In this document: piece by piece, positions 3,783 through 59,437 of the stretch | Position numbering within the stretch: the stretch's first letter is position 1 | Layout: each line of letters starts with the position of its first letter | From: an uncultured Oscillospiraceae bacterium | GTDB taxonomy: Bacteria > Bacillota > Clostridia > Oscillospirales > Ruminococcaceae | DNA length: 59,926 nucleotides | Assembly: GCA_964370155.1 (NCBI GenBank) | Contig: CAYJIC010000001.1 | Coordinates: 1-59,926 of the forward strand | Reading direction: 5' to 3' | The notes under the pieces: generated by a model | What the model was told of the DNA's origin: nothing | Seen by the model: only the letters and a program-made list of their open reading frames with translations | The model's database searches: none | Position numbers and translations under genes: made by a program

Positions 3783-4670
3783 CTAATTTTCTTTACAAGG
3801 CATACCTGTGGAATAGTCGTTGTTACCTAAAATGGTGGATAGCTTGCCATCTTCTAATGTCCCAAGCCAGTTGCCCATGGCGGCTGAAATGCAAACAGCA
3901 GCCGTTTGCTGTGCCAGCGCAACCACTTCAGAAAGAGTGAGGTTCATTGTTTCGCCTGAGAAAGGGTTTGTCCATGTGTCTGGCAGGTGTCGTAAAGAAG
4001 GTGCCGGCTGTGTACGGCATGAAAGCGGACCTACACCATCTGGCATTTTTTTAGGCTCGGACAACTTAAGATAAATGCTTTTAATTTTTGGCTTGCTGAA
4101 CATCATGTTGCGCACAGTGACATTGTCGTGGAATGCATCGGCTAAAGCTAAAATGGGGATATAAACACCATAGACTTTGGCAATGCTATTGCGCAATAAC
4201 ACACACACACTTGCAAGCTCATCCGTGATAAGCACAGGAGTGGAAGCGTGCAAAGGAACAGTATAGGTTTTGAAATTTTCATAATATAATGTGGAATCAA
4301 TGGAATTTGCTAGTATAAAAGCTCCATGTTCTTCATTATACGGTCCACCTTCTTCACACATGGCTGCAATGTAAGGTGAAAGAGTGCACTCGGTGGTGTA
4401 GTGTGAAATAAAACCAAGAGCATAGCTTTGTTGCGTGGGTGTGGAAGCATAAGATATTAACGTGCGTAAGAATTTACCGGTGTTTTCGCTACGTATTCTA
4501 TTGGCAACAGAGGCTAGGTCGTGGTTACGTTTACGCTTTAAGATGCGGTACATGTAAAATGGATTGGCACCACACGCTCCGGCCATAAAAGCAGGAGTAC
4601 TGGCTACGGTATATCCACTGCGCATTAAAGCTTGCATAGCAGTGTGGATGTGTGTATAACATTCTGACAT
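3783..4670 (-). CDS. hypothetical protein resembling the zinc-dependent phospholipase C-fold family, with altered ligand positions
   Basis: 295 aa. N-terminal CYTHIHTA, then GACGANPFYMY, GFISHYTTECTLSPYI and EEHGAFILANSID are collinear, from memory, with the TH../GPD../H..D..HPY/H..E..D blocks of that family. Confidence 0.55.
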   Translation of the reverse strand: MSECYTHIHTAMQALMRSGYTVASTPAFMAGACGANPFYMYRILKRKRNHDLASVANRIRSENTGKFLRTLISYASTPTQQSYALGFISHYTTECTLSPYIAAMCEEGGPYNEEHGAFILANSIDSTLYYENFKTYTVPLHASTPVLITDELASVCVLLRNSIAKVYGVYIPILALADAFHDNVTVRNMMFSKPKIKSIYLKLSEPKKMPDGVGPLSCRTQPAPSLRHLPDTWTNPFSGETMNLTLSEVVALAQQTAAVCISAAMGNWLGTLEDGKLSTILGNNDYSTGMPCKEN

Positions 4671-48817: not shown

Positions 48818-48915
48818 CTTACTAATTGCACTTATTTTATAAGTCATACTTGGGCTGTAAATGAATGATAAAGATTATTTTGTTTGGCAAATAAGCTGAA
48901 AGGAGGATGATATGC

Positions 48916-50664
48916 ATGGAAAATCAAAAGCTTAATTTTGTTTATACTGAAGAAAGTAAATGCAAAGGATGTAATAAATGTGTGTTTAAATGTCCTACAA
49001 AGGCAAATAAAGCTGTGTGGGTGGAAGAAGAGAACAAAATACTCATCCGAAACGGACGTTGCATTTCTTGTAGTGAATGCATTGCCATTTGCGATCATGA
49101 AGCAAGGGATTATATAGACGATACAGAAACATTTTTTGATGATTTGAAAAATGGCGTATCTATCTCAGTGGTGGTGGCGCCTGCTGCAGCGACAAATTTT
49201 AAAGATTATGAAAATATCATTGGTTTTTTAAAGCACATGGGTGTTAATTTGATATATGATGTATCTTATGGTGCAAATATTTGCACATGGGGATATATAA
49301 GGGCAATCACCGAAAAAAAGCTAAAAACATTGATTGCACAGCCATGTCCGGTAGTGGTAAGTCATGTGGAAAAATATCATTCTTCGTTGATAGAGTATTT
49401 GTCGCCGGTGCACAGCCCGGTAGCGTGTGCGGCTATATACCTGAAAAAATACAAAAATGTGACAGATAAAATTGCGTTTTTATCTCCATGTATTGGTAAA
49501 AAAAGAGAGTGTATAGATCCAAATACAGATGATAGCATCCATTATAATGTCACGTTTTCAAAGTTTGCAAAGTATATAAAAGAGCATAATATTGACATCG
49601 GTAGTTATCCTAAAGCAGAGTTTGACAGCGTGGATATGTTGCTTGGTTTTGCTTTTCCAAGGCCGGGTGGTCTTAGTGAAAATGTGAGATTGTATTTAGG
49701 CGATGATGTGTGGATAAAGCAAATAGAAGGTATTTTTGTAATTGAAGATTACTTCAGGCAGTATGAGGACGACTTGAAAAATGAGCGGCCTGTACCGCTT
49801 ATTGTGGATGCGCTGAATTGTGAGCATGGGTGCAATTTAGGAACAGGAACTGATAAAGATGCAAGATACAACGAAATTGACTTCAAGATAAACCAAAAGA
49901 AGCAACGGGTAAACAAAAGTGATGTAGAAAAGTATGTGAAAATATTTAACGAGACTTTGGATTTGAATGATTTCATGCGTAAATATGACGATAAGAGCGT
50001 GGAATATAAAACATTGACAGATGCAGACCTTGAAAATATTTATATAGAGCTTGGGAAGCTGACAGAAGCAGACCGAAATATCAACTGTTTTTCATGCGGC
50101 TACGGCACATGTGAACGTTTTGCAATTGCAATTGCGAATGGAAATAATCACAAGAATAATTGTAGGCAATATCTTTTAGATAAGTTTAAATCTATGGGAT
50201 TTATTGATGATCTTACCGGCCTGAAAAATAGAAACAGTTTTGAGGTTGAAATAGAGCAGTATAAAGGCTCAGAAAATGAGGCAGTAGGAATTGTATTTGT
50301 GGATATTAATGGACTGAAAATAGCTAATGACACTTATGGGCATAAACGTGGCGATGCGATGATTACAGCATGCTCGGACATAATGAAGAATGTTTTTCCG
50401 GGAAAAGTCTTTCGTGTGGGTGGAGATGAGTTTGTGGTTGTTGCTGCCGGCATTTCAAAAGAATTGTTTGAAGATAAGATGATAGCTTTACGTAAAGCGT
50501 TTGAAAACAATGATACAATTCGGGTATCTATCGGTGAAACATGGAGTGACAATGTAGATGATATCCAAGATATGATAGCTGAAGCTGACCAAAAAATGTA
50601 TGAAGATAAAAAACTATATTACGAAAATAACAAGCATTTATGCGCGAGAGAGCCGATGGTGTGA
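48916..50664 (+). CDS. 2x[4Fe-4S] ferredoxin / [FeFe]-hydrogenase H-domain-like sensor fused to a GGDEF diguanylate cyclase
   Basis: CKGCNKCVFKCP and CISCSECIAICD. H-cluster-like motifs are AQPCP (Cys codon 49345-49347), SPCIGKKRE (49489-49491) and NCEHGCNLGTG (49819-49833). CFSCGYGTC follows, then an intact GGDEF (RVGGDEFVV). ATG 48916 lies 9 nt after GGAGG. Confidence 0.85.
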   Translation: MENQKLNFVYTEESKCKGCNKCVFKCPTKANKAVWVEEENKILIRNGRCISCSECIAICDHEARDYIDDTETFFDDLKNGVSISVVVAPAAATNFKDYENIIGFLKHMGVNLIYDVSYGANICTWGYIRAITEKKLKTLIAQPCPVVVSHVEKYHSSLIEYLSPVHSPVACAAIYLKKYKNVTDKIAFLSPCIGKKRECIDPNTDDSIHYNVTFSKFAKYIKEHNIDIGSYPKAEFDSVDMLLGFAFPRPGGLSENVRLYLGDDVWIKQIEGIFVIEDYFRQYEDDLKNERPVPLIVDALNCEHGCNLGTGTDKDARYNEIDFKINQKKQRVNKSDVEKYVKIFNETLDLNDFMRKYDDKSVEYKTLTDADLENIYIELGKLTEADRNINCFSCGYGTCERFAIAIANGNNHKNNCRQYLLDKFKSMGFIDDLTGLKNRNSFEVEIEQYKGSENEAVGIVFVDINGLKIANDTYGHKRGDAMITACSDIMKNVFPGKVFRVGGDEFVVVAAGISKELFEDKMIALRKAFENNDTIRVSIGETWSDNVDDIQDMIAEADQKMYEDKKLYYENNKHLCAREPMV

Positions 50665-50695
50665 TGCGTAAAGAGTGCATAAAAAATATAAAATG

Positions 50696-50724
50696 TTGAC
50701 TTTTTTAAAAATATGTGATTTAAT
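50696..50724 (+). promoter_or_regulatory. candidate promoter of the aro leader transcript
   Basis: TTGACT (50696-50701), 17 nt ending in TGA, TTTAAT (50719-50724). Confidence 0.45.
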
Positions 50725-50780
50725 AATAACGGCTGGTAACACTAGCCGGTAGATATTTTGTTTTAAAAAGGATATTTATA

Positions 50781-50882
50781 ATGATAACTGTTGCAAACAA
50801 TCGATTTTATTTTTACTTTTACTTTATTAGCTTGTTTAATAAGGTGTTCTTTGGTTTGCAACAACGGATATATGAAAAGTAA
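50781..50882 (+). CDS. candidate Phe/Tyr-rich leader peptide of the aro operon (33 aa)
   Basis: AAAGGA (50767-50772), 8 nt, ATG 50781. Reads MITVANNRFYFYFYFISLFNKVFFGLQQRIYEK, stop TAA 50880-50882. 7 Phe and 4 Tyr codons, with the FYFYFYF run at 50805-50825. Confidence 0.6.
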   Translation: MITVANNRFYFYFYFISLFNKVFFGLQQRIYEK

Positions 50883-50900
50883 AATACTTTATTGCATATA

Positions 50901-50937
50901 TACCCGAGGTTCACTAAAGAACCCCGGGTATTTTTTT
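50901..50937 (+). terminator. intrinsic terminator (attenuator) 35 nt upstream of aroF
   Basis: TACCCGAGGTTC (50901-50912) pairs with GAACCCCGGGTA (50919-50930) with one A-C mismatch and a 6-nt loop, followed by T7 (50931-50937). Confidence 0.8.
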
Positions 50938-50972
50938 ATATTTAAAATTGGCAAAAAAAGGAGATAGACATT

Positions 50973-51986
50973 ATGGTGATCATACTGAAAGAGAAAAAAG
51001 ATGAAAGACAAATAGAAAATTTGCGTCAATGGCTTGAAAGCATGGGGCTTAGCATTAACGTAGTAGACGGTGAAAGCCGGACTATTATAGGCGTAATAGG
51101 CGACACTTCGGTGGTGGATGTTGATGTGATTGACTCACTTGATATTGTGCAAAGTGTGAAACGTATTCAAGAGCCGTATAAAAAAGCAAATAAAAAGTTT
51201 CATCCTGAGTCTTCGGTAATCACCTTATCTGATGGCACTAAAATAGGTGGTGGAAATTTTGTGGTCATGGCGGGACCGTGCTCGGTGGAATCGCGTGAGC
51301 AAATTTGCGAAGTGGCAAACTCTGTGAAGGCGAATGGAGCAAATATACTTCGTGGCGGAGCTTTCAAACCCAGAACATCGCCATATGCTTTCCAAGGCAT
51401 GGGAAGTGAAGGGCTTGATTTATTGCTGGAAGCTCAAAAAGAAACTGGGTTGCCGATCATTTCTGAGCTGATGGATCTTGCGCAATTGCCGCTGTTTGAA
51501 AATGTAGATATCATCCAGATAGGCGCTCGCAACATGCAAAATTTCACTTTGCTGAAAGAACTTGGCAAGTCAGGAAAGCCTATTTTGCTGAAGCGTGGCC
51601 TAGCCAATACGTTGGAAGAGCTGATGATGAGCGCGGAATATGTTATGGCAGGTGGCAACAGCCAGTTGATTTTATGTGAGCGAGGCATCCGCACATTTGA
51701 AACAGCTGTACGGAATACGCTAGACTTATCGGCTATTCCTGTGCTAAAAGAAAAAACTCATTTGCCAATTATCATTGATCCGAGTCATGCGACAGGGTAT
51801 GCGAAGTTTGTGCCAAGTATGTCTTTGGCGGCAGTGGCTGCAGGCGCCGACGGACTGATAATTGAAGTGCACAACAATCCTAAAAAAGCACTTTGTGACG
51901 GGCCACAGTCCTTGACAATGCAGGAGTTTGAAAAATTATCGGGTCAAATTAGTGTCTTACGCGAGACAATGAAATCTTTTACTTAG
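50973..51986 (+). CDS. aroF: 3-deoxy-7-phosphoheptulonate (DAHP) synthase, type I-beta with N-terminal regulatory domain
   Basis: 337 aa. A ferredoxin-like N-domain of about 65 aa, then GPCSVES, LRGGAFKPRTSPY and IIDPSH. Confidence 0.92.
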   Translation: MVIILKEKKDERQIENLRQWLESMGLSINVVDGESRTIIGVIGDTSVVDVDVIDSLDIVQSVKRIQEPYKKANKKFHPESSVITLSDGTKIGGGNFVVMAGPCSVESREQICEVANSVKANGANILRGGAFKPRTSPYAFQGMGSEGLDLLLEAQKETGLPIISELMDLAQLPLFENVDIIQIGARNMQNFTLLKELGKSGKPILLKRGLANTLEELMMSAEYVMAGGNSQLILCERGIRTFETAVRNTLDLSAIPVLKEKTHLPIIIDPSHATGYAKFVPSMSLAAVAAGADGLIIEVHNNPKKALCDGPQSLTMQEFEKLSGQISVLRETMKSFT

Positions 51987-51996
51987 GAGAAATATA

Positions 51997-52833
51997 ATGA
52001 AAAAAGTAATAGGAATTGTGGGACTTGGATTGATTGGTGGTTCTATTGCCAAGGCAATTGCGGCGAAAACAGACCATACGGTGCTAGCGTATGACAAAAA
52101 TAGTGATGTGCTGGCAAAAGCGATAGAGGACGAAGTGGTTAGTCGCGAACTGACGGAAGATAGTTTGCAGGAGTGCTCTATGGTGGTGGTGTGCTTGTAT
52201 CCACAAGATACTATTGCGTATGTGAAAGAAAATATAAAGCACATGAAAAACGGCACGTTGATTGTGGACTGTGCAGGCGTGAAAAGTTCAATTTGTCGTG
52301 AATTATCTATTTTTTGCCAGGATAACAGATGCTTTTTTGTGGGTGGTCATCCCATGGCAGGTATAGAAAAATCAGGTTATACAGCAGCATCAGAAGGACT
52401 GTTTTGTGGCGCTACCATGATTTTATGCAAAGATGAAAATACAAACATAGTGGCGGTGACGGCGCTGGAGTTATTTTTTAAAAGTTTGGGTTTTGAAAAG
52501 ATTGTACACTCAAACGCCGAAGAACACGACGCTACCATTGCATTTACATCACAGCTGGCGCATGTGGTATCGAATGCATATGTGCAAAGCACGTATGCAG
52601 AAAGGCAGTCTGACTTTTCCGGAGGTAGCTATCAAGATCTTACGAGGGTAGCATATTTGAACGAAGAAATGTGGGCTCAGCTATTTTTGGAAAACAAGCC
52701 GTTTTTGGTACCTGAAATTCGTAGCTTGGCCGAAAGAATGTTGCAATATGCTGATTTTATTGAAAATAACGATAAAGAAGGTTTGAAAGCGTTGTTGTGC
52801 AAAGGCAAGGAAATGAAAGAAAAGGTGGGCTAG
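51997..52833 (+). CDS. tyrA: prephenate dehydrogenase
   Basis: IVGLGLIGGSIA Rossmann motif and GGHPMAG. Confidence 0.9.
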   Translation: MKKVIGIVGLGLIGGSIAKAIAAKTDHTVLAYDKNSDVLAKAIEDEVVSRELTEDSLQECSMVVVCLYPQDTIAYVKENIKHMKNGTLIVDCAGVKSSICRELSIFCQDNRCFFVGGHPMAGIEKSGYTAASEGLFCGATMILCKDENTNIVAVTALELFFKSLGFEKIVHSNAEEHDATIAFTSQLAHVVSNAYVQSTYAERQSDFSGGSYQDLTRVAYLNEEMWAQLFLENKPFLVPEIRSLAERMLQYADFIENNDKEGLKALLCKGKEMKEKVG

Positions 52834-52836
52834 AGT

Positions 52837-53880
52837 GTGAAGAAAATTTTTGTAGATGTATCTAAAAGCTACAATGTGATGGTGGAAAAAGGTAGCATCG
52901 CCACCTGTGGTAAACTGATACGAGAGGTTAAAGATGCGTGCACGGCGGTTATCATCAGTGATGATACTGTCTATCCTCTTTACGGTGAAGTGATAGAAAA
53001 ATCGCTTACGGAAAACGGATTTTCGGTCTTGAGCTTTGTGTTTTCGGCAGGCGAGCGGTCTAAAAACCTTGCTACAGCAGGTGGAATTTTACAGTTTTTA
53101 GCCGAGAATAAGGTGGCTCGCTCGGATGTGCTGGTGGCGCTGGGTGGTGGTGTTGTGGGCGACATGGTGGGCTTTTGCGCTTCGATATATCTGCGTGGTA
53201 TTCCATATGTGCAAATTCCCACTACGGTGCTTGCGGCGGTGGACTCTTCTGTAGGCGGTAAAACAGGGGTAGACCTAAGCTGCGGCAAAAACTTGGTAGG
53301 TAGCTTTTACCATCCGTTGCTGGTAGTGTGTGATACAGATACGTTTTCGACACTCAGTCGTGAAATATATACTGATGGTTTGTGTGAAGTGATAAAATAC
53401 GGATGTATTTTAGACAAAGCACTTTTTGATTTGTTGGCAGAGGGCAGGTTTGATGAGTGTCTTGAAGATGTGGTGGCAAGGTGTATTGAACTAAAAGCCG
53501 ATATTGTATCGCAAGATGAGTTTGATAATGGAATTAGGCAAATTTTGAACTATGGGCACACTATGGGCCATGCAATTGAGGCGCTTAGCGATTATAGCAT
53601 ATCGCATGGCAAATCAGTGGCCGCAGGAATGGTGTGTATAGAAAAAGCAGCAGGTAGCGGCTTTGATAAAGATATTAAAAATGTACTTGATGTGTATGAC
53701 ATTAATGTGCAATGCCCATATACCGCAGAAGAAATAACCCAGCGTGCAACAAACGATAAGAAAATCAAAAATGGATCTCTTTCGCTGATTTTGCTGAAAG
53801 AGATTGGCAAAAGTGTGATTTCGCCTATGCCGGTAGAAAAACTTTGCGATTTTTTTGCCAAAGGAGTGGATGCTTTATGA
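52837..53880 (+). CDS. aroB: 3-dehydroquinate synthase
   Basis: LGGGVVGDMVGF, DSSVGGKTG, NYGHTMGHAIE. GTG start 7 nt after AAGGTGG. Confidence 0.93.
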   Translation: MKKIFVDVSKSYNVMVEKGSIATCGKLIREVKDACTAVIISDDTVYPLYGEVIEKSLTENGFSVLSFVFSAGERSKNLATAGGILQFLAENKVARSDVLVALGGGVVGDMVGFCASIYLRGIPYVQIPTTVLAAVDSSVGGKTGVDLSCGKNLVGSFYHPLLVVCDTDTFSTLSREIYTDGLCEVIKYGCILDKALFDLLAEGRFDECLEDVVARCIELKADIVSQDEFDNGIRQILNYGHTMGHAIEALSDYSISHGKSVAAGMVCIEKAAGSGFDKDIKNVLDVYDINVQCPYTAEEITQRATNDKKIKNGSLSLILLKEIGKSVISPMPVEKLCDFFAKGVDAL

Positions 53881-55037
53881 ATGTGAAAATAACTCCTGCA
53901 AAGTTAAGTGGTGGAATAGACGCTATTTCGTCTAAATCGTATGCACATCGTATTTTGCTTGCGGCAGCATTGTGTAAAAGTCCAACGGAAATCAGGCTGA
54001 ACCATTTTTCAGACGATATCAAGGCAAGCATTGGGGCAATTGCCGCTATGGGGGCAAAGTTTGAAAGCAGAGAAAAAGGCATTTTGGTAATACCGCCTGA
54101 ATATTTTGCGCAGGAAATATCGGTGAATGCAAAAGAAAGCGGGACCACGGCAAGGATGATACTGCCTATACTTACAGCCGTGAGCAGAAAAGGCGAGCTA
54201 AGTGGGGAAGGTTCGCTAACAAAAAGGCCGTTCGCTGACTTGTGTCAGGCCATTGAGTCAAATGGGATAATATTCAATAACCATAACTTGCCGATTTCAT
54301 ATGAGGGCGACATGATGGCTGGCAAGTATGAAATTGCTGGAAATGTTAGCAGTCAGTATATCTCGGGCTTGATGTATGCTTTGCCACTTTTAGCCGGAAA
54401 CAGTAGCATTTATTTAACAACAAATGCTGTCTCACAAGGATATTTAGACATCACAAAACAGGTACTTGAAGATTTTGGGATACAAAGCGGGTATGAGATA
54501 AAAGGCGAACAAGAGTATAAATCACCCGGATGCGTTACGGTGGAGGGTGACTGGTCAAATGCATCGTATTGGCTGTGTGTAGGAATAAAACCTATTGGGC
54601 TAAATCAGAACTCGTTACAAAATGATAGATTGTTCACTGTGGTAAAAGATGAAGATGAGATTGATGCCGAGGAGATTCCAGACCTTGTTCCTGCGCTTGC
54701 GGTATATGCCACGCAAAAGGAAAAACCCACTAAGATTTATAATATACAACGCCTTAGGATAAAGGAAAGTGACCGCGTGAAAAGCGTCAGCGACATGATA
54801 ACAGCGCTGGGTGGGAAGATTACCACTGATGATGCGGCGATGTATATCACGCCTTCAAAACTACGAGGTGGAGTGGTGGATGGGTGTGGCGATCACAGGA
54901 TTGTGATGTCGGCGGCGGTGGCTTCATGTTTTTGCAGTGAAGAGGTGCATATCTTAGGTGCGCAGGCGGTAAATAAATCTTACCCACAGTTTTTTGAAGA
55001 TTTTGCCATGTTGGGAGGAAAAGTAAATGTCTTGTAA
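53877..55037 (+). CDS. aroA: 3-phosphoshikimate 1-carboxyvinyltransferase (EPSP synthase)
   Basis: SSKSYAHRIL, GTTARM, DHRIVMSAAV. ATGA overlap with the aroB stop, with AAGGAG 10 nt upstream. Confidence 0.93.
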   Translation: MNVKITPAKLSGGIDAISSKSYAHRILLAAALCKSPTEIRLNHFSDDIKASIGAIAAMGAKFESREKGILVIPPEYFAQEISVNAKESGTTARMILPILTAVSRKGELSGEGSLTKRPFADLCQAIESNGIIFNNHNLPISYEGDMMAGKYEIAGNVSSQYISGLMYALPLLAGNSSIYLTTNAVSQGYLDITKQVLEDFGIQSGYEIKGEQEYKSPGCVTVEGDWSNASYWLCVGIKPIGLNQNSLQNDRLFTVVKDEDEIDAEEIPDLVPALAVYATQKEKPTKIYNIQRLRIKESDRVKSVSDMITALGGKITTDDAAMYITPSKLRGGVVDGCGDHRIVMSAAVASCFCSEEVHILGAQAVNKSYPQFFEDFAMLGGKVNVL

Positions 55038-56082
55038 CTTTGGTGATAAAATCCACATACAAATATTTGGACAAAGCCATTCAGAGATGCTGGGTGTGGT
55101 TTTAGATGGACTACCTGCCGGATTTGAGCCGGATATGGACGCCGTACACGCTTTTTTGATGCGTAGGCAAGGCGGAAAAAGCTTTTCCACACCGCGTAAA
55201 GAAGAGGATTTGCCGCATATTGTCAGCGGTTTAGTAGATGGCAAGACTTGTGGTGCGCCGCTGTGTGCACTTTTTGCAAACAAGAATATTAAAAGTAAAG
55301 ACTATGCTCAAATGGCCGATATCCCAAGACCGTCGCATGCCGATTATGTGGCACATGTTAAATATAACGGTGCAAATGATGTGCGTGGAGGTGGTCATTT
55401 TTCAGGAAGAATGACCCTGGCACTTTGTTTTGCAGGTGCGTTGTGTATGCAAATTTTGAATAAAAAAGGAATTCACATAGGTGCACACATTGCATCGATA
55501 GGCTCAGTAAAGGATGAACTGTTTTCTCCTACAGATGTAGATTTTTCATCAATAGATCCTGAATTTCCAACACTGAACAGTGCACAAAAACAAAAAATGA
55601 TAGATGAGATTGCAATGTACTCAAAAGACCATGATTCTATAGGTGGAAGTATAGAATGTGCTGTGACAGGTTTGCCTGTGGGCATAGGCGAGCCGATGTT
55701 TGATGGAATTGAGAATCAAATATCAAAAGCGGTGTTTGCCGTGCCTGCAATAAGAGGGATAGAATTTGGCTCAGGGTTTGCTGCGGCTGAGATGCCCGGT
55801 AGTGTCCACAACGACGCATATTATTACGAAAATGATATAGTGAAGGTGAAAAACAATCATGCAGGCGGAGTTTTGGGCGGAATATCCACCGGCATGCCAC
55901 TGATATTCAAAGTGGCTGTAAAGCCCACGCCGTCTATTTTTAAAGAGCAAGAATCGATAAGCTTATCGCAAAAAAGCAGTGCGCCGCTTACCATAAAAGG
56001 CAGGCATGACCCATGTATTGTGCCAAGAGCTGTGCCGTGTATAGAAGCGGCGGCAGCGTTGGCAGTGATCAATCTGTTATAA
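55027..56082 (+). CDS. aroC: chorismate synthase
   Basis: FGQSHS, RPSHAD, GRHDPC. 11-nt overlap with aroA. Confidence 0.94.
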   Translation: MSCNFGDKIHIQIFGQSHSEMLGVVLDGLPAGFEPDMDAVHAFLMRRQGGKSFSTPRKEEDLPHIVSGLVDGKTCGAPLCALFANKNIKSKDYAQMADIPRPSHADYVAHVKYNGANDVRGGGHFSGRMTLALCFAGALCMQILNKKGIHIGAHIASIGSVKDELFSPTDVDFSSIDPEFPTLNSAQKQKMIDEIAMYSKDHDSIGGSIECAVTGLPVGIGEPMFDGIENQISKAVFAVPAIRGIEFGSGFAAAEMPGSVHNDAYYYENDIVKVKNNHAGGVLGGISTGMPLIFKVAVKPTPSIFKEQESISLSQKSSAPLTIKGRHDPCIVPRAVPCIEAAAALAVINLL

Positions 56083-56129
56083 AATATTAAATAAAAATAA
56101 TTAATAACTTGATAAAAAAGGAGAAAGCC

Positions 56130-57275
56130 ATGAAAACAGATTTGGTGGGAGCTAGGGAAAAAATTGATAAAATTGATAAAGAGATATCGGACTTGTTTTT
56201 AGAAAGAATGCAGACGGTAAAAGACGTGGCACTGTATAAAAAAGAAAATGGCTTACATGTTTTACATCCTGCTAGAGAGCAAGAAGTGCTGGTGAATGTA
56301 ACAAAAGGCATGGATGATGACATGACAGAGTACGCAAAACTTTTGTATAATACCATGTTTGATGTATCGCGTGCATATCAAGACAAGTGTGTGATGGGCG
56401 AGGATGAGTTGTTAGGTGTGATAAAAAATGCAATTCAAAACCGTCCGAGTAAATTTCCGAAACATGCAACCGTGGCGTGTCAAGGAGTGCAGGGTTCAAA
56501 CTCTATGACTGCGTGTCAAACCATATTTTCTGTGCCTGATATCATGTATATGAATAGCTTTGATGCGGTGTTTAAAGCAGTGGATTCCGGCTTGTGCCAG
56601 TATGGTGTGTTACCGCTTGAAAACAACCTGCATGGCTCAGTTACCGAAGTGTATGATTTAATGAAAAAGCATAATTTTCAAATTGTGCGAAGTGCCAAAG
56701 TGCGAATTCATCACCATCTGTTGGCTAAAAATGGAACAAAGATGGAAGACTTGAAAGAGATTTACTCGCACCCGCAAGCTATAGGCCAGTGCAGCGAGTT
56801 TTTGCAAACCTGTAAAAATGTGAAAGTGATTCCTCATGAAAATACAGCTACATCGGCAGAAATGGTGGCGAACTCAAGCGGTAATACTATGGCCTCTATT
56901 TCAGGCAAAGAATGCGTTCAGTTGTATAACCTTAATGTGTTGAGCGACGATATTCAAAACAGCTACAATAACTTTACACGTTTCATATGCATTTCGAAAA
57001 GTGCTGAAATATACACAGGTGCGAATAAAAACAGCATGATGTTTACCTTGCCGCACAATCCGGGCTCGTTATATTCTATTATTTCTAAAATGTCTGCCGC
57101 GGCAGTTAATATCTCTAAGCTGGAAAGCAGGCCGATACCCGGAATGGATTTTGAGTTCATGTTTTACATAGATTTTGACGGTGATATCACAGACGAAAGC
57201 GTACAAAAACTTCTGGCGCAAATAAAGCATACTGCGGATAAATTCACTTACTTAGGGAGCTATTGCGAAGTATGA
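56130..57275 (+). CDS. pheA: bifunctional chorismate mutase / prephenate dehydratase
   Basis: N-terminal CM (REKIDKIDKEISDLFLERM), a PDT core (LPLENNLHGSV, TRF) and an ACT domain (LESRPI). ATG 56130 follows AAGGAGAAAG. Confidence 0.92.
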   Translation: MKTDLVGAREKIDKIDKEISDLFLERMQTVKDVALYKKENGLHVLHPAREQEVLVNVTKGMDDDMTEYAKLLYNTMFDVSRAYQDKCVMGEDELLGVIKNAIQNRPSKFPKHATVACQGVQGSNSMTACQTIFSVPDIMYMNSFDAVFKAVDSGLCQYGVLPLENNLHGSVTEVYDLMKKHNFQIVRSAKVRIHHHLLAKNGTKMEDLKEIYSHPQAIGQCSEFLQTCKNVKVIPHENTATSAEMVANSSGNTMASISGKECVQLYNLNVLSDDIQNSYNNFTRFICISKSAEIYTGANKNSMMFTLPHNPGSLYSIISKMSAAAVNISKLESRPIPGMDFEFMFYIDFDGDITDESVQKLLAQIKHTADKFTYLGSYCEV

Positions 57276-58480
57276 AATACGGATTGATAGGAAAAACACT
57301 GGCACACAGCTACTCCGTGAAAATTCATAATTATCTAGGTAATAAAGACTATGTTTTGCAGGAAATTGCACCTGAAAATCTTGATGAATTTATGACAAAA
57401 CGTGATTTTTTAGGTATTAATGTCACCATGCCGTACAAAGAAGCGGTGATGAAATATTGTGTTTTGTCAGAGCAAGCGCAGAAAATAGGATGCGTAAATA
57501 CTATAGTGAATAAAGACGGGATATTGCACGGATATAACACAGACTATTTTGGTTTTTTGGAAAATGCAACCCGTAGTGGGATTTCATTTGCAGGACAAAA
57601 AGTGGTGATCTTAGGTGGTGGAGGTACCTCCAAAACAGTGATGGCAGTGGCAATGGATGAAGGCGCAAAAGAAGTGGTGGTGATTTCACGCGGTGGTGAA
57701 AACAACTATCAAAACATAAGCCGTCACTATGACGCAGACATACTGGTAAATACAACGCCACTGGGCATGTATCCTCACAACGAAGGCATACCGCTGGATG
57801 TGACGCCATTTACCCATCTTAAAGCGGCAATGGATGCTGTGTATAACCCGATGAAAAGTAATTTTTTACTGCAGTGTAAAGATATACCCACAGCAGGCGG
57901 CCTGCCAATGCTAGCGGCGCAGGCAGTGTATGCACATGGTTTGTTTTTTGGCATAGATGTCTCGGACTTGATGCAAGAAACAATTGCACATGCGATGGAA
58001 ATTTTTTCAAACTATGTGTTTATTGGGATGCCTGGCACAGGAAAAAGTACGGTGGGGAAACTGTTTTCTGAGAAAATGGGCCTAAAATTTGTGGATACCG
58101 ATGATGAGATTATAAGGCGAACAGGTGAACATCCGAGGGATATCATCAACCAAAAAGGTGAAGATGCATTTAGGCAGATTGAGGCAGAAGTAGTTGCTGA
58201 CTTTGCCAAAGAAAATGGCTATGTGATTGCCACCGGTGGTGGCAGTGTACTTTTAGAAAAAAACCGGAAAGCTATTTTGCAAAATGGTGTGGTTGTTTTA
58301 CTGAATAGACCAATTGAAGATTTAGATGTACAAAATAGGCCACTTTCAGTCAACTTGGAAGAACTGCGAGCTAAAAGAATGCCGATTTACAAGAGTGTAG
58401 CGCATCATGTGGTCGAGGTAAAAGCAACACCGGACATGACGGTGGAATCGGTGCTGAAACGTATAAAAAAGGAGGGCTGA
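57272..58480 (+). CDS. aroE/aroK: fused shikimate dehydrogenase / shikimate kinase
   Basis: The N-terminal about 245 aa are AroE-like (YGLIGKTLAHSYS, NVTMPYK, GGGGTSK). The C-terminal about 155 aa are AroK-like (GMPGTGKSTVGK, DTDD, GGG). ATGA overlap with pheA. Confidence 0.9.
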   Translation: MKYGLIGKTLAHSYSVKIHNYLGNKDYVLQEIAPENLDEFMTKRDFLGINVTMPYKEAVMKYCVLSEQAQKIGCVNTIVNKDGILHGYNTDYFGFLENATRSGISFAGQKVVILGGGGTSKTVMAVAMDEGAKEVVVISRGGENNYQNISRHYDADILVNTTPLGMYPHNEGIPLDVTPFTHLKAAMDAVYNPMKSNFLLQCKDIPTAGGLPMLAAQAVYAHGLFFGIDVSDLMQETIAHAMEIFSNYVFIGMPGTGKSTVGKLFSEKMGLKFVDTDDEIIRRTGEHPRDIINQKGEDAFRQIEAEVVADFAKENGYVIATGGGSVLLEKNRKAILQNGVVVLLNRPIEDLDVQNRPLSVNLEELRAKRMPIYKSVAHHVVEVKATPDMTVESVLKRIKKEG

Positions 58481-58481
58481 A

Positions 58482-58910
58482 ATGAAAATATTGGTGATAA
58501 ACGGACCAAATATAAACTTTTTAGGTATTCGTGAGCCTGAAATTTACGGCAGTGATACATATGAAGATCTACTGCAAAAAATCACTGTTCATTGCGAAAA
58601 AACAGGGATTGATGTCAGCTTTTTTCAGTCGAATCACGAGGGTAAGATAGTGGATACTATTCAAGAAGCATACAAAAAAGTGGATGGTATTGTGATAAAC
58701 CCAGCGGCATACACGCACACCAGTGTTGCCATAGCCGACGCATTGAAAGCAGTGGGTATCCCGACAGTAGAAGTCCACATTTCAGACGTGTCAAAGAGGG
58801 AAGACTTTCGCAAAATATCATATGTAAAGTCAATATGTAAGAAAAGTATAATAGGCATGGGCTTTGACGGATACATTCATGCAATTGATTTTTTGAAAGA
58901 AAGTATTTAA
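58482..58910 (+). CDS. aroQ: type II 3-dehydroquinate dehydratase
   Basis: ILVINGPNINFLGIREPEIYG, HISDV..RE. Confidence 0.94.
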   Translation: MKILVINGPNINFLGIREPEIYGSDTYEDLLQKITVHCEKTGIDVSFFQSNHEGKIVDTIQEAYKKVDGIVINPAAYTHTSVAIADALKAVGIPTVEVHISDVSKREDFRKISYVKSICKKSIIGMGFDGYIHAIDFLKESI

Positions 58911-58980: not shown

Positions 58981-59009
58981 TTGACAAATCATCTTGATGG
59001 TGATATGGT
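58981..59009 (+). promoter_or_regulatory. candidate promoter of the GntR/ABC unit
   Basis: TTGACA (58981-58986), 17 nt, TATGGT (59004-59009). Confidence 0.5.
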
Positions 59010-59059
59010 TAGTTACAGAAGTAATGAACCATTCAACCAAAGACGAAAGGAGGGATGTT

Positions 59060-59437
59060 GTGCAGACGGGGTTTAATGACGGCACACTGATTTATCTGCA
59101 AGTTGCCCAGATGATAGAAGATGATATCTTGCGTGGAATATGGCAAGAGGAAGAGCAAGTGCCAAGCACTAACGAGCTATCAAAAACGTTGCGAATCAAT
59201 CCGGCCACGGCGGCAAAAGGGCTGAATCGTTTGGTGGAGGAAGGCATTTTATATAAAAAGAGGGGAATAGGCATGTTTGTGTCAACAGGTGGAAAGCAAA
59301 TGATAATGACAAAGCGTAAAGAGGCGTTTGGTAAGACATATATTGCACAGATGCTGAAGGAAGCGAAGGCGCTGATGATAACAAAAGAAGAACTGATTAA
59401 TATGATACAAGCGCAAGAATACAGCGAGGAGAAATAA
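59060..59437 (+). CDS. GntR family transcriptional regulator, short YtrA-like subtype
   Basis: 125 aa from GTG 59060, 6 nt after AAAGGAGGG. LIYLQVAQMIEDDILRGIW..VPSTNELSKTLRINPATAAKGLNRLVEEGILYKKRGIGMFV is the GntR wHTH. Confidence 0.85.
   Translation: MQTGFNDGTLIYLQVAQMIEDDILRGIWQEEEQVPSTNELSKTLRINPATAAKGLNRLVEEGILYKKRGIGMFVSTGGKQMIMTKRKEAFGKTYIAQMLKEAKALMITKEELINMIQAQEYSEEK

Follow-up and report, generated by a model that had tools for sequence, protein, structure and literature searches.

Among the closest described systems, pheL-pheA and pheM-pheST of Escherichia coli, which belong to the trpL/hisL class of ribosome-mediated attenuators, possess a Shine–Dalgarno (SD) sequence, a run of codons for the end product, helices designated 1:2, 2:3 and 3:4, and an intrinsic terminator. 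The same features are found at positions 50696–50972 of a 59,926-nucleotide (nt) stretch of DNA from an uncultured Oscillospiraceae bacterium (contig CAYJIC010000001.1 of assembly GCA_964370155.1), the whole of which is referred to here as the window, where they precede the gene aroF. We consider it likely that this element is a ribosome-mediated leader-peptide attenuator which couples the operon aroF-tyrA-aroB-aroA-aroC-pheA-aroEK-aroQ to the charging of tRNA-Phe and tRNA-Tyr. Whereas the two E. coli leaders are gammaproteobacterial and use Phe codons only, the leader in the window interleaves codons for two amino acids, carries an extra hairpin over the last codons of the run and has an antiterminator that spans the loop and half of the 3' arm of the terminator; at E ≤ 10 the window has no match to an Rfam leader model. 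To our knowledge, there is no cultured isolate of the species.

A Phe/Tyr leader peptide in front of aroF, the gene for 3-deoxy-D-arabino-heptulosonate 7-phosphate (DAHP) synthase, has an experimentally demonstrated precedent in Corynebacterium glutamicum, where the aroR leader (Phe-Tyr-Phe) lies upstream of aroF and stalling enhances read-through (Neshat et al. 2014, via PMC11802643), with only Phe limitation having been effective experimentally. The aroR leader is actinobacterial and has only three regulatory codons, whereas the window has a much longer antiterminator and an eight-gene operon including tyrA and pheA, and the two leaders are likely of independent origin. In the wider Firmicutes/Mollicutes radiation the closest published prediction is uORFC-13-1 (Brewer et al. 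2021, PMC8632094), a predicted upstream open reading frame (uORF) that is always upstream of aroF, with 24 representatives from Acholeplasma and unassigned environmental sequences; it consists of a promoter, a ribosome-binding site, a start codon and a U-rich Phe-encoding stretch ('at least one' Phe codon, no Tyr) immediately before an intrinsic terminator. Compared by this description, all of its positional and qualitative features are present in the window, which no Rfam 15 model matches.

Ribosome-mediated leader attenuators have also been reported from the same phylum, mostly through comparative discovery, namely His leaders in the Bacillus cereus group, in Clostridioides difficile and other Peptostreptococcaceae and in Erysipelotrichales, and the Listeria ilv leader (PMC2965389, PMC9413887, PMC5864092); these belong to other operons, none of them aromatic and none from Oscillospirales. 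With His and branched-chain amino-acid leaders known in Firmicutes, including Clostridia, and with the aroF precedents in C. glutamicum and Acholeplasma, a first reading of the window made from its letters alone (the sequence-only reading) went too far in calling such an attenuator unusual in this lineage and undescribed for this operon. A full-text search of the published literature found no aroF leader peptide described for Clostridia or Oscillospirales, and Rfam 15, Pfam and NCBIfam contain no model for an aroF leader family. The mechanism itself is classic; the family to which the window element belongs seems to be widespread and is apparently uncatalogued. In C. difficile 630, premature termination that is unlike known riboregulators occurs in the aroF 5' untranslated region (UTR) (PMC8237595), and it may represent a related element.

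Anatomy of the leader and its occurrence ahead of aroF

The elements that the sequence-only reading had listed, namely the promoter boxes, SD, open reading frame (ORF), Phe/Tyr run, stop codon, hairpin followed by seven T residues, and aroF ATG, are all present where it had placed them. The leader ORF (50781–50882, + strand) has 33 codons, MITVANNRFYFYFYFISLFNKVFFGLQQRIYEK, of which seven are Phe and four are Tyr (11/33), and its start lies 8 nt downstream of the SD AAAGGA (50767–50772, +), for which an anti-SD duplex of -5.4 kcal/mol was calculated. The candidate regulatory codons, TTT TAT TTT TAC TTT TAC TTT (F9 to F15; 50805–50825, +), form an uninterrupted series of seven alternating Phe and Tyr codons. 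Eighteen nt past the stop codon (50880–50882) begins a GC-rich hairpin of 12 pairs with a free energy of -18.2 kcal/mol; its stem (50900–50912/50919–50931) and the T7 tract at 50931–50937 constitute an intrinsic terminator (50900–50937, +), as indicated by folding and by covariation. The aroF gene starts at ATG 50973, 90 nt beyond the leader stop codon, with the SD AAAGGAG.

For comparison, 80 loci containing relatives of AroF were collected from species-representative genomes, the nearest being Oscillospiraceae and Clostridia metagenome-assembled genomes (MAGs) with AroF identities of 69–76%, and a further 80 from metagenomes, 75 of which were usable, with AroF identities to the window of at most 66%. 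A short ORF upstream of aroF, in the genome loci defined by at least five Phe or Tyr in eight residues, was found in 41 of the 80 genome loci, and an F/Y-rich short ORF likewise precedes aroF in 25 of the 75 metagenome loci. In the 41 genome loci the ORF starts 142–237 nt and ends 67–134 nt before the aroF start codon, nearly all begin with ATG and have a recognisable SD, and all but one (40/41) are followed by a strong terminator 17–59 nt past the stop codon. Examples of the encoded peptides are MTSIRNNKFYFSFYFSFINKV..., MQKQYNSFYFYFYFSNGNC, MSSAAQFYFYYYYFFTQKK and MTRITNAAEYRYFSFTGYYFGKASFGLAQQG. The Phe/Tyr runs, each with 5–8 such codons, are written with both Phe codons (TTT 154, TTC 38) and both Tyr codons (TAT 66, TAC 86), with only two Trp codons in the 41 leaders, so that the conserved in-frame short ORF with F/Y runs and synonymous variation, which the sequence-only reading had proposed to look for in relatives, is indeed found.

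The same comparison bears on the possibility that the run is a chance product, a low-complexity TTTTAY repeat in AT-rich DNA beside the terminator of the upstream GGDEF gene. The intergenic DNA of the window has a GC content of 27% and the run is indeed a hexamer repeat, a worry that the sequence-only reading had itself raised. Against this, the genomes with a leader range from 31 to 64% GC, the same layout being present before aroF up to the upper end of this range, with use of TTC and TAC. At least six Phe or Tyr in eight residues occur in 32 of the 80 upstream regions, compared with 0.4% of dinucleotide shuffles and none of the 80 reverse complements, while other residue pairs reach the same score in 0–7 of the 80 regions; because shuffles, reverse complements and other residue pairs so rarely score as high, the run is not merely a TTTTAY repeat in AT-rich DNA. 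Furthermore, the upstream gene is a different one except in the two closest relatives, and a conserved promoter separates the GGDEF gene from the leader. We therefore regard a chance origin as scarcely credible.

A second alternative accepts that the ORF is translated but takes its product to be a hydrophobic micropeptide, or the ORF to be a uORF that tunes aroF translation or mRNA stability, with the hairpin as a normal terminator or one that leaks. In its favour, the peptides are hydrophobic as well as aromatic, and in locus L166 (1247–1351) the gene caller of the source had annotated the leader ORF as a protein of 34 residues, without a Pfam match; such leaders are probably scattered through the databases as tiny hypothetical proteins. 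However, the F/Y run is the sole peptide feature conserved across the family. Outside it the peptides are unrelated, their length varies from 15 to 39 residues, and eight leader peptides compared with Pfam and NCBIfam matched no family. Translational coupling is implausible because 90 nt and a strong terminator separate the leader stop codon from the aroF start, and the way in which region 1, region 2 and the terminator have coevolved, described below, would have no part in this explanation. A micropeptide or tuning uORF is consequently very unlikely in our view.

Further leaders rich in Tyr only were noted about 100–200 nt upstream of aroF in L088, L095, L101, L146–L149 and L157–L160, for example ...NYYYSIDRYYYAV..., MRRYVGYAYGYYRCYF... 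and MNHSYYYYR, which suggests sub-families tuned to Tyr rather than to Phe and Tyr together. In L062 (2622–2794), from Lachnoanaerobaculum saburreum, a Clostridiales-1 RNA (RF01699, 127 bits) is located about 200–380 nt upstream of aroF, and no F/Y leader is present there.

A large protein search additionally yielded two close relatives of the window, L161 (AroF identity 96%) and L162 (95%), and more members of its clade; L163 and L169 were left out as they contain too little upstream DNA, and L168 contains only a partial leader. The leader ORF is 99% (L161) and 98% (L162) identical to that of the window at the nucleotide level, and the segment from the stop codon to the end of the terminator is 98 and 96% identical, respectively. 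In contrast, identity at the third codon positions of aroF is only 68 and 65%, and in the DNA upstream of the -35 box it is 47 and 43%. Because the leader and terminator are 96–99% identical against 65–68% at aroF third positions, purifying selection is, from these comparisons, far stronger on the leader RNA than on the synonymous sites in aroF. Of the few differences, the substitutions at 50785 (Ile to Lys), 50801 (synonymous) and 50907 (a bulge of the terminator stem) are unpaired in both alternative folds, the A>G change at 50861 converts an A-U pair to a G.U pair in both helix 1:2 and the antiterminator, and a one-base deletion in L162 at 50915 lies in the terminator loop. As a separate observation, the AroF of L163 (79–1800), which scores 698 bits against that of the window, is annotated at 573 residues and has two DAHP_synth_1 matches, which may reflect a duplication, a fusion or a frameshifted assembly.

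Predicted alternative RNA structures

The unconstrained fold of 50725–50945 has a minimum free energy of -58.1 kcal/mol (z = -5.66 against 200 dinucleotide shuffles) and contains both of the competing helices that the sequence-only reading had put forward. The first is the anti-antiterminator helix 1:2, in which region 1 (50789–50798, +) as the 5' strand forms ten Watson–Crick pairs with 50854–50863. The second pairs 50865–50874 with 50897–50906, in a register that is ambiguous because of an AU repeat. Nested inside helix 1:2 is a further hairpin, designated hairpin B (50820–50846, +; 50820–50830 paired with 50836–50846, -6.0 kcal/mol), a conserved element, supported by covariation, that was missing from the earlier model. 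The Tyr-Phe codons that end the run make up its 5' arm, its 3' arm reaches into the first nucleotides of the antiterminator, and a U-rich stretch follows it. Hairpin B could act as a further anti-antiterminator, as a pause hairpin or in both ways; as a pause hairpin it may hold up RNA polymerase and so synchronise translation with transcription, as in the trp leader.

The antiterminator was examined by placing a stalled ribosome in the run and folding the RNA between it and position 50925, a stage at which the last six nt of the terminator 3' arm have yet to be made. At this stage the minimum-free-energy fold, at -24.8 kcal/mol, is a long helix between 50843–50874 and 50897–50925. It has an outer part (50843–50855 with 50913–50925), a middle part (50858–50867 with 50904–50912) and an inner part (50869–50874 with 50897–50902), and is closed by an apical hairpin (50878–50893, +) which holds the leader stop codon. 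Its 5' strand, region 2 (50843–50874, +), includes an invariant UCUUUG segment and the 3' strand of helix 1:2 (50854–50863), and accordingly overlaps both hairpin B (50843–50846) and helix 1:2. Its 3' strand, region 3 (50897–50925, +), comprises the terminator 5' arm, the loop and the first 7 nt of the 3' arm, so that the whole 5' arm, the loop and half of the 3' arm are sequestered. The sequence-only reading had described the antiterminator as AU-rich and weak; this judgement no longer holds, as the CGGATATATG/CATATAT..CCG helix on which it was based is only the inner part of the -24.8 kcal/mol structure. A separate '2:4' antiterminator, in which UCUUUG would pair only with the terminator 3' arm, was considered and rejected, since this pairing is the outer helix of the same antiterminator in one register.

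Computed effect of ribosome position on terminator sequestration

A translating ribosome was represented by a mask of 29 nt around the A site on an RNA ending at the terminator loop, and the readout, termed sequestration, was how much free energy is gained when the terminator 5' arm pairs with upstream sequence, with dinucleotide shuffles of the region between the ORF start and the terminator as controls. Without a ribosome, sequestration amounted to 6.3 kcal/mol in the window, to a mean of 3.5 kcal/mol in 40 leaders and to 4.5 kcal/mol in the shuffles. The corresponding values were 6.7 (maximum 7.5), 4.9 and 4.4 kcal/mol for a ribosome stalled in the run, and 0.8, 2.8 and 4.2 kcal/mol when the stop codon was in the A site. 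Among the 40 leaders the difference between the stalled and stop states was +2.2 kcal/mol, compared with +0.1 kcal/mol in shuffles (p = 7e-7), and that between the stalled and free states was +1.4 kcal/mol, compared with -0.1 kcal/mol (p = 4e-11). In the model, it is the dependence on ribosome position, and not the absolute strength of pairing, that is specific to the real sequences.

In the window, when the first Phe or the first Tyr codon is in the A site, the ribosome covers region 1, and the extended antiterminator is then the minimum-free-energy fold. With the A site on the stop codon the ribosome masks 50865–50893, and pairing of the terminator 5' arm with upstream sequence is abolished. 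The mask folding thus came out as the attenuator model predicts, the ribosome at the stop codon abolishing the antiterminator (0.8 against 6.3–7.5 kcal/mol).

Pairing with own and with exchanged partners

Whether each sequence pairs better with its own partner than with that of another leader was assessed by permutation across the 40 leaders of the family and within the clade of the window (11 sequences, nine of them distinct beyond near-identity). Region 2 paired with its own terminator 5' arm and loop at -13.5 kcal/mol, compared with -9.6 kcal/mol for permuted partners, a difference of more than 10 standard deviations (p < 5e-5), and region 1 paired with its own region 2 at -20.3 compared with -15.5 kcal/mol (p < 5e-5; both across the 40 leaders). 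Region 1 showed no advantage with its own terminator 5' arm (p = 0.97), a combination that served as the negative control in the same 40 leaders. Taken as computed pairing energies, these results amount to the 1:2/2:3/3:4 pattern. Within the clade, the UCUUUG segment paired with its own terminator loop and 3' arm at -11.0 kcal/mol, compared with -8.1 kcal/mol for those of other members (p = 7e-4), and the same long-antiterminator architecture was found in eight of the nine distinct members, with energies from -17.6 to -27.0 kcal/mol.

The compensatory stem changes that the sequence-only reading had suggested looking for are seen in the two local hairpins of the 11 clade sequences. In hairpin B, 98% of cells are paired and four of nine pairs have changed on both sides; in the terminator, 96.7% of cells are paired and seven of 11 pairs have changed on both sides. 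Taken together, 97.3% are paired and 11 of 20 pairs have changed on both sides, while controls in which the arms were slid reach at most 47%. RNAalifold on a five-sequence clade alignment recovers only hairpin B and the terminator. Helix 1:2 is present in each clade member, with different sequences, shifted positions and often with inclusion of the leader start codon. Because the positions of the long-range helices shift, with bulges, counting covariation column by column is meaningless for them, and helix 1:2 and the antiterminator were judged by folding each sequence and by the energy permutation tests.

Comparison with known regulatory RNAs

At gathering scores, Rfam 15 identified no family in the whole window. 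At E ≤ 10 over 50600–51050 only PyrR (23.5 against a threshold of 54 bits) and NsiR1 (22.8 against 39 bits) appeared, both driven by the terminator, and no leader family. The T-box model RF00230 matched neither the window at its gathering score nor 50600–51050 at E ≤ 10, and no T-box core string is present. TRAP-type attenuators contain 9–11 (G/U)AG triplets spaced by 2–3 nt, whereas 50725–50972 contains six scattered triplets, the longest properly spaced chain having one member. The earlier statement that neither a T-box nor a (G/U)AG array is present is thereby upheld, and the T-box model is not blind to this gene, as it is positive at aroF in other Firmicutes loci: T-boxes with 112–126 bits (Rfam) lie directly upstream of aroF in L069 (2704–2946), L076 (2713–2942), L077 (2717–2964) and L079 (2694–2934). 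These four loci are Erysipelotrichales-like and other Bacillota, and L077 has a second T-box after aroF (4110–4358). The T-box leaders share with the window element the position, the gene, a conditional intrinsic terminator and tRNA charging as the signal, but they bind uncharged tRNA directly through RNA–RNA contact without translation, and none occurs in the leader-bearing loci. From these sequence matches, Firmicutes would differ in how they control aroF, some using a T-box and others a leader peptide.

These data also address the possibility that the terminator is conditional but is controlled by an RNA-binding protein, an uncharged tRNA or a small ligand, with the F/Y ORF being incidental or secondary. 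T-box, TRAP and PyrR-type control are classic in Firmicutes, and T-boxes do precede aroF in the four loci just named. The 23.5-bit score is a weak similarity to a PyrR site, and the window and L161/L162 share more of the leader RNA sequence than simple pairing would require, which could hint at an additional binding partner. Such a controller is nevertheless unlikely, since no Rfam model reaches its threshold and the T-box core and (G/U)AG array are absent. What the family keeps is only the start codon, the in-frame F/Y codons, the stop codon and the pairing pattern, which is the signature of a translated sensor rather than of an aptamer or a protein-binding site, and the switch logic follows ribosome positions in the model.

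Proposed mechanism and points that weigh against it

The Rfam results, the relatives, the stem changes and the mask folding together support, at the level of sequence and model, the ribosome-mediated Phe/Tyr attenuator that the sequence-only reading had suggested. As we infer them, leader translation, ribosome stalling, the kinetics of the switch and the response to amino acids would proceed as follows. Transcription would start just past 50724, and the 33-codon leader would be translated while RNA polymerase proceeds. When Phe and Tyr are ample, the ribosome would pass over the F/Y run and then region 2 until it meets the stop codon at 50880, occupying the 5' strand of the antiterminator; with the antiterminator blocked, the terminator (50900–50931 and T7) would form and transcription would end before aroF. 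When Phe-tRNA or Tyr-tRNA is scarce, the lead ribosome would stall at whichever starved codon comes first (Phe 50805 or Tyr 50808). It would then cover region 1 (50789–50798) and, when halted further along the run, the 5' arm of hairpin B, so that region 2 (50843–50874) is freed. Region 2 would then pair with 50897–50925 before the rest of the terminator 3' arm is made, and the polymerase would enter the operon. In the absence of translation, helix 1:2 and hairpin B would sequester region 2, and termination is expected.

Several observations weigh against this interpretation. All of the evidence is computational and the relatives are genome or MAG sequences. The promoter at 50696–50724 is absent from a simple promoter scan, which omitted it because TTTAAT lacks an A at position 2 and is a poor -10 box, and the SD of the leader, itself of modest strength, is embedded in a weak AU hairpin (50749–50779), of which it occupies part of the 3' arm; the leader SDs of relatives are mostly stronger (GGAGG/GAGG). 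Across the family, the strength of the antiterminator in the stalled state is not significantly higher than in shuffles (4.9 compared with 4.4 kcal/mol). In the window, sequestration of the 5' arm is nearly as strong in the free as in the stalled state (6.3 and 6.7 kcal/mol), a partial antiterminator being predicted without translation, so that the discrimination of the window itself is mainly between the stalled and stop states. With the A site on later codons of the run, helix 1:2 re-forms around the ribosome in the model. Once the full 3' arm has been made, the terminator state is better than the antiterminator by 1.8–2.4 kcal/mol, and the terminator wins at equilibrium in every ribosome state in the window (P = 0.89–0.98); as the terminator is favoured at equilibrium, the switch must be kinetic. 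The equilibrium terminator probability was tried as a criterion in its own right and was rejected, as it did not discriminate among ribosome states and attenuators act kinetically. Finally, transcription outruns translation in Bacillus subtilis (Johnson 2020, via PMC7858274), and such runaway transcription, if true here, would undermine the mechanism; in C. difficile a proxy based on terminator positions argues against runaway transcription (PMC8237595).

Promoter, operon and neighbouring genes

The candidate sigma-70 promoter (50696–50724, +) reads TTGACT at 50696–50701, a 17-nt spacer ending in TGA and a TG-extended TTTAAT at 50719–50724. It is conserved in L161 and L162, the segment 50690–50724 being 91% identical, compared with only 43–47% for the DNA upstream of 50690, so that conservation among the close relatives begins about 10 nt 5' of the -35 box. 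L001–L004 have TTGACA...TATAAT boxes at a comparable position. At the 5' end of the predicted leader transcript, the minimum-free-energy fold contains a stem-loop of 8 pairs (50730–50748, +), which is retained in L161 and L162 despite several changes on both arms and which may contribute to transcript stability; L001–L004 do not have this stem-loop, and their promoter is about 20 nt nearer the leader.

Downstream of the leader, Pfam domains delineate an operon of eight genes, aroF-tyrA-aroB-aroA-aroC-pheA-aroE/aroK-aroQ (50973–58910, +), with DAHP synthase carrying an N-terminal ferredoxin-like domain as the aroF product and chorismate mutase plus prephenate dehydratase as that of pheA. The Pfam assignments bear out the earlier view that this operon makes Phe and Tyr, and detected no trp genes in it. 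A single ORF (aroE-aroK, 57263–58480, +) combines shikimate dehydrogenase with shikimate kinase, and a gene for a GntR-family regulator (58994–59437, +; Pfam) follows aroQ at the end of the operon. Other stretches of the window rich in Phe, Tyr or Trp in six-frame translation were inspected for further F/Y leaders, and all were out of frame inside long genes.

The gene 5' of the leader (48907–50664, +) encodes 4Fe-4S, Fe-only-hydrogenase large-subunit-like and GGDEF diguanylate cyclase domains (Pfam), and its product looks like a hydrogenase-like redox or gas sensor that drives the synthesis of cyclic di-GMP. This gene is present upstream in none of the 80 genome loci and is shared only by the two closest relatives, L161 and L162. 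In the leader-bearing relatives aroF is the first gene and is mostly followed by tyrA-aroB-aroA or pheA, and in many leaderless loci aroE/K lies directly upstream and aroF is internal to the operon. As judged from this gene order, the leader element travels with aroF and not with the upstream gene.

Conclusion

In conclusion, the leader in the window offers a concrete and testable regulatory mechanism for the aromatic operon of mostly uncultured Clostridia of the gut, rumen and digesters, for which no regulator was known before. Beyond the single locus, we lean slightly towards the view that aroF-led aromatic operons in Oscillospirales and adjacent Clostridia, many gut and rumen lineages among them, are governed chiefly by a large, uncatalogued family of dual Phe/Tyr leaders. 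Such a family would stand where other Firmicutes have T-boxes and would use an unusually large antiterminator, and it would imply functional transcription–translation coupling, or synchronisation of the two by pausing at hairpin B, in this order, unlike in B. subtilis. The element could merit a new Rfam or NCBIfam entry, and it may account for the unexplained premature termination in the C. difficile aroF 5' UTR. Inside one phylum, the same gene, aroF, would alternate between T-box and leader-peptide control, and the interleaved Phe and Tyr codons would constitute a natural two-input sensor. Since ribosome-dependent attenuators require a ribosome close behind the polymerase, a family of this kind widespread in Clostridia would bear on the generality of the 'runaway' transcription described for B. 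subtilis.

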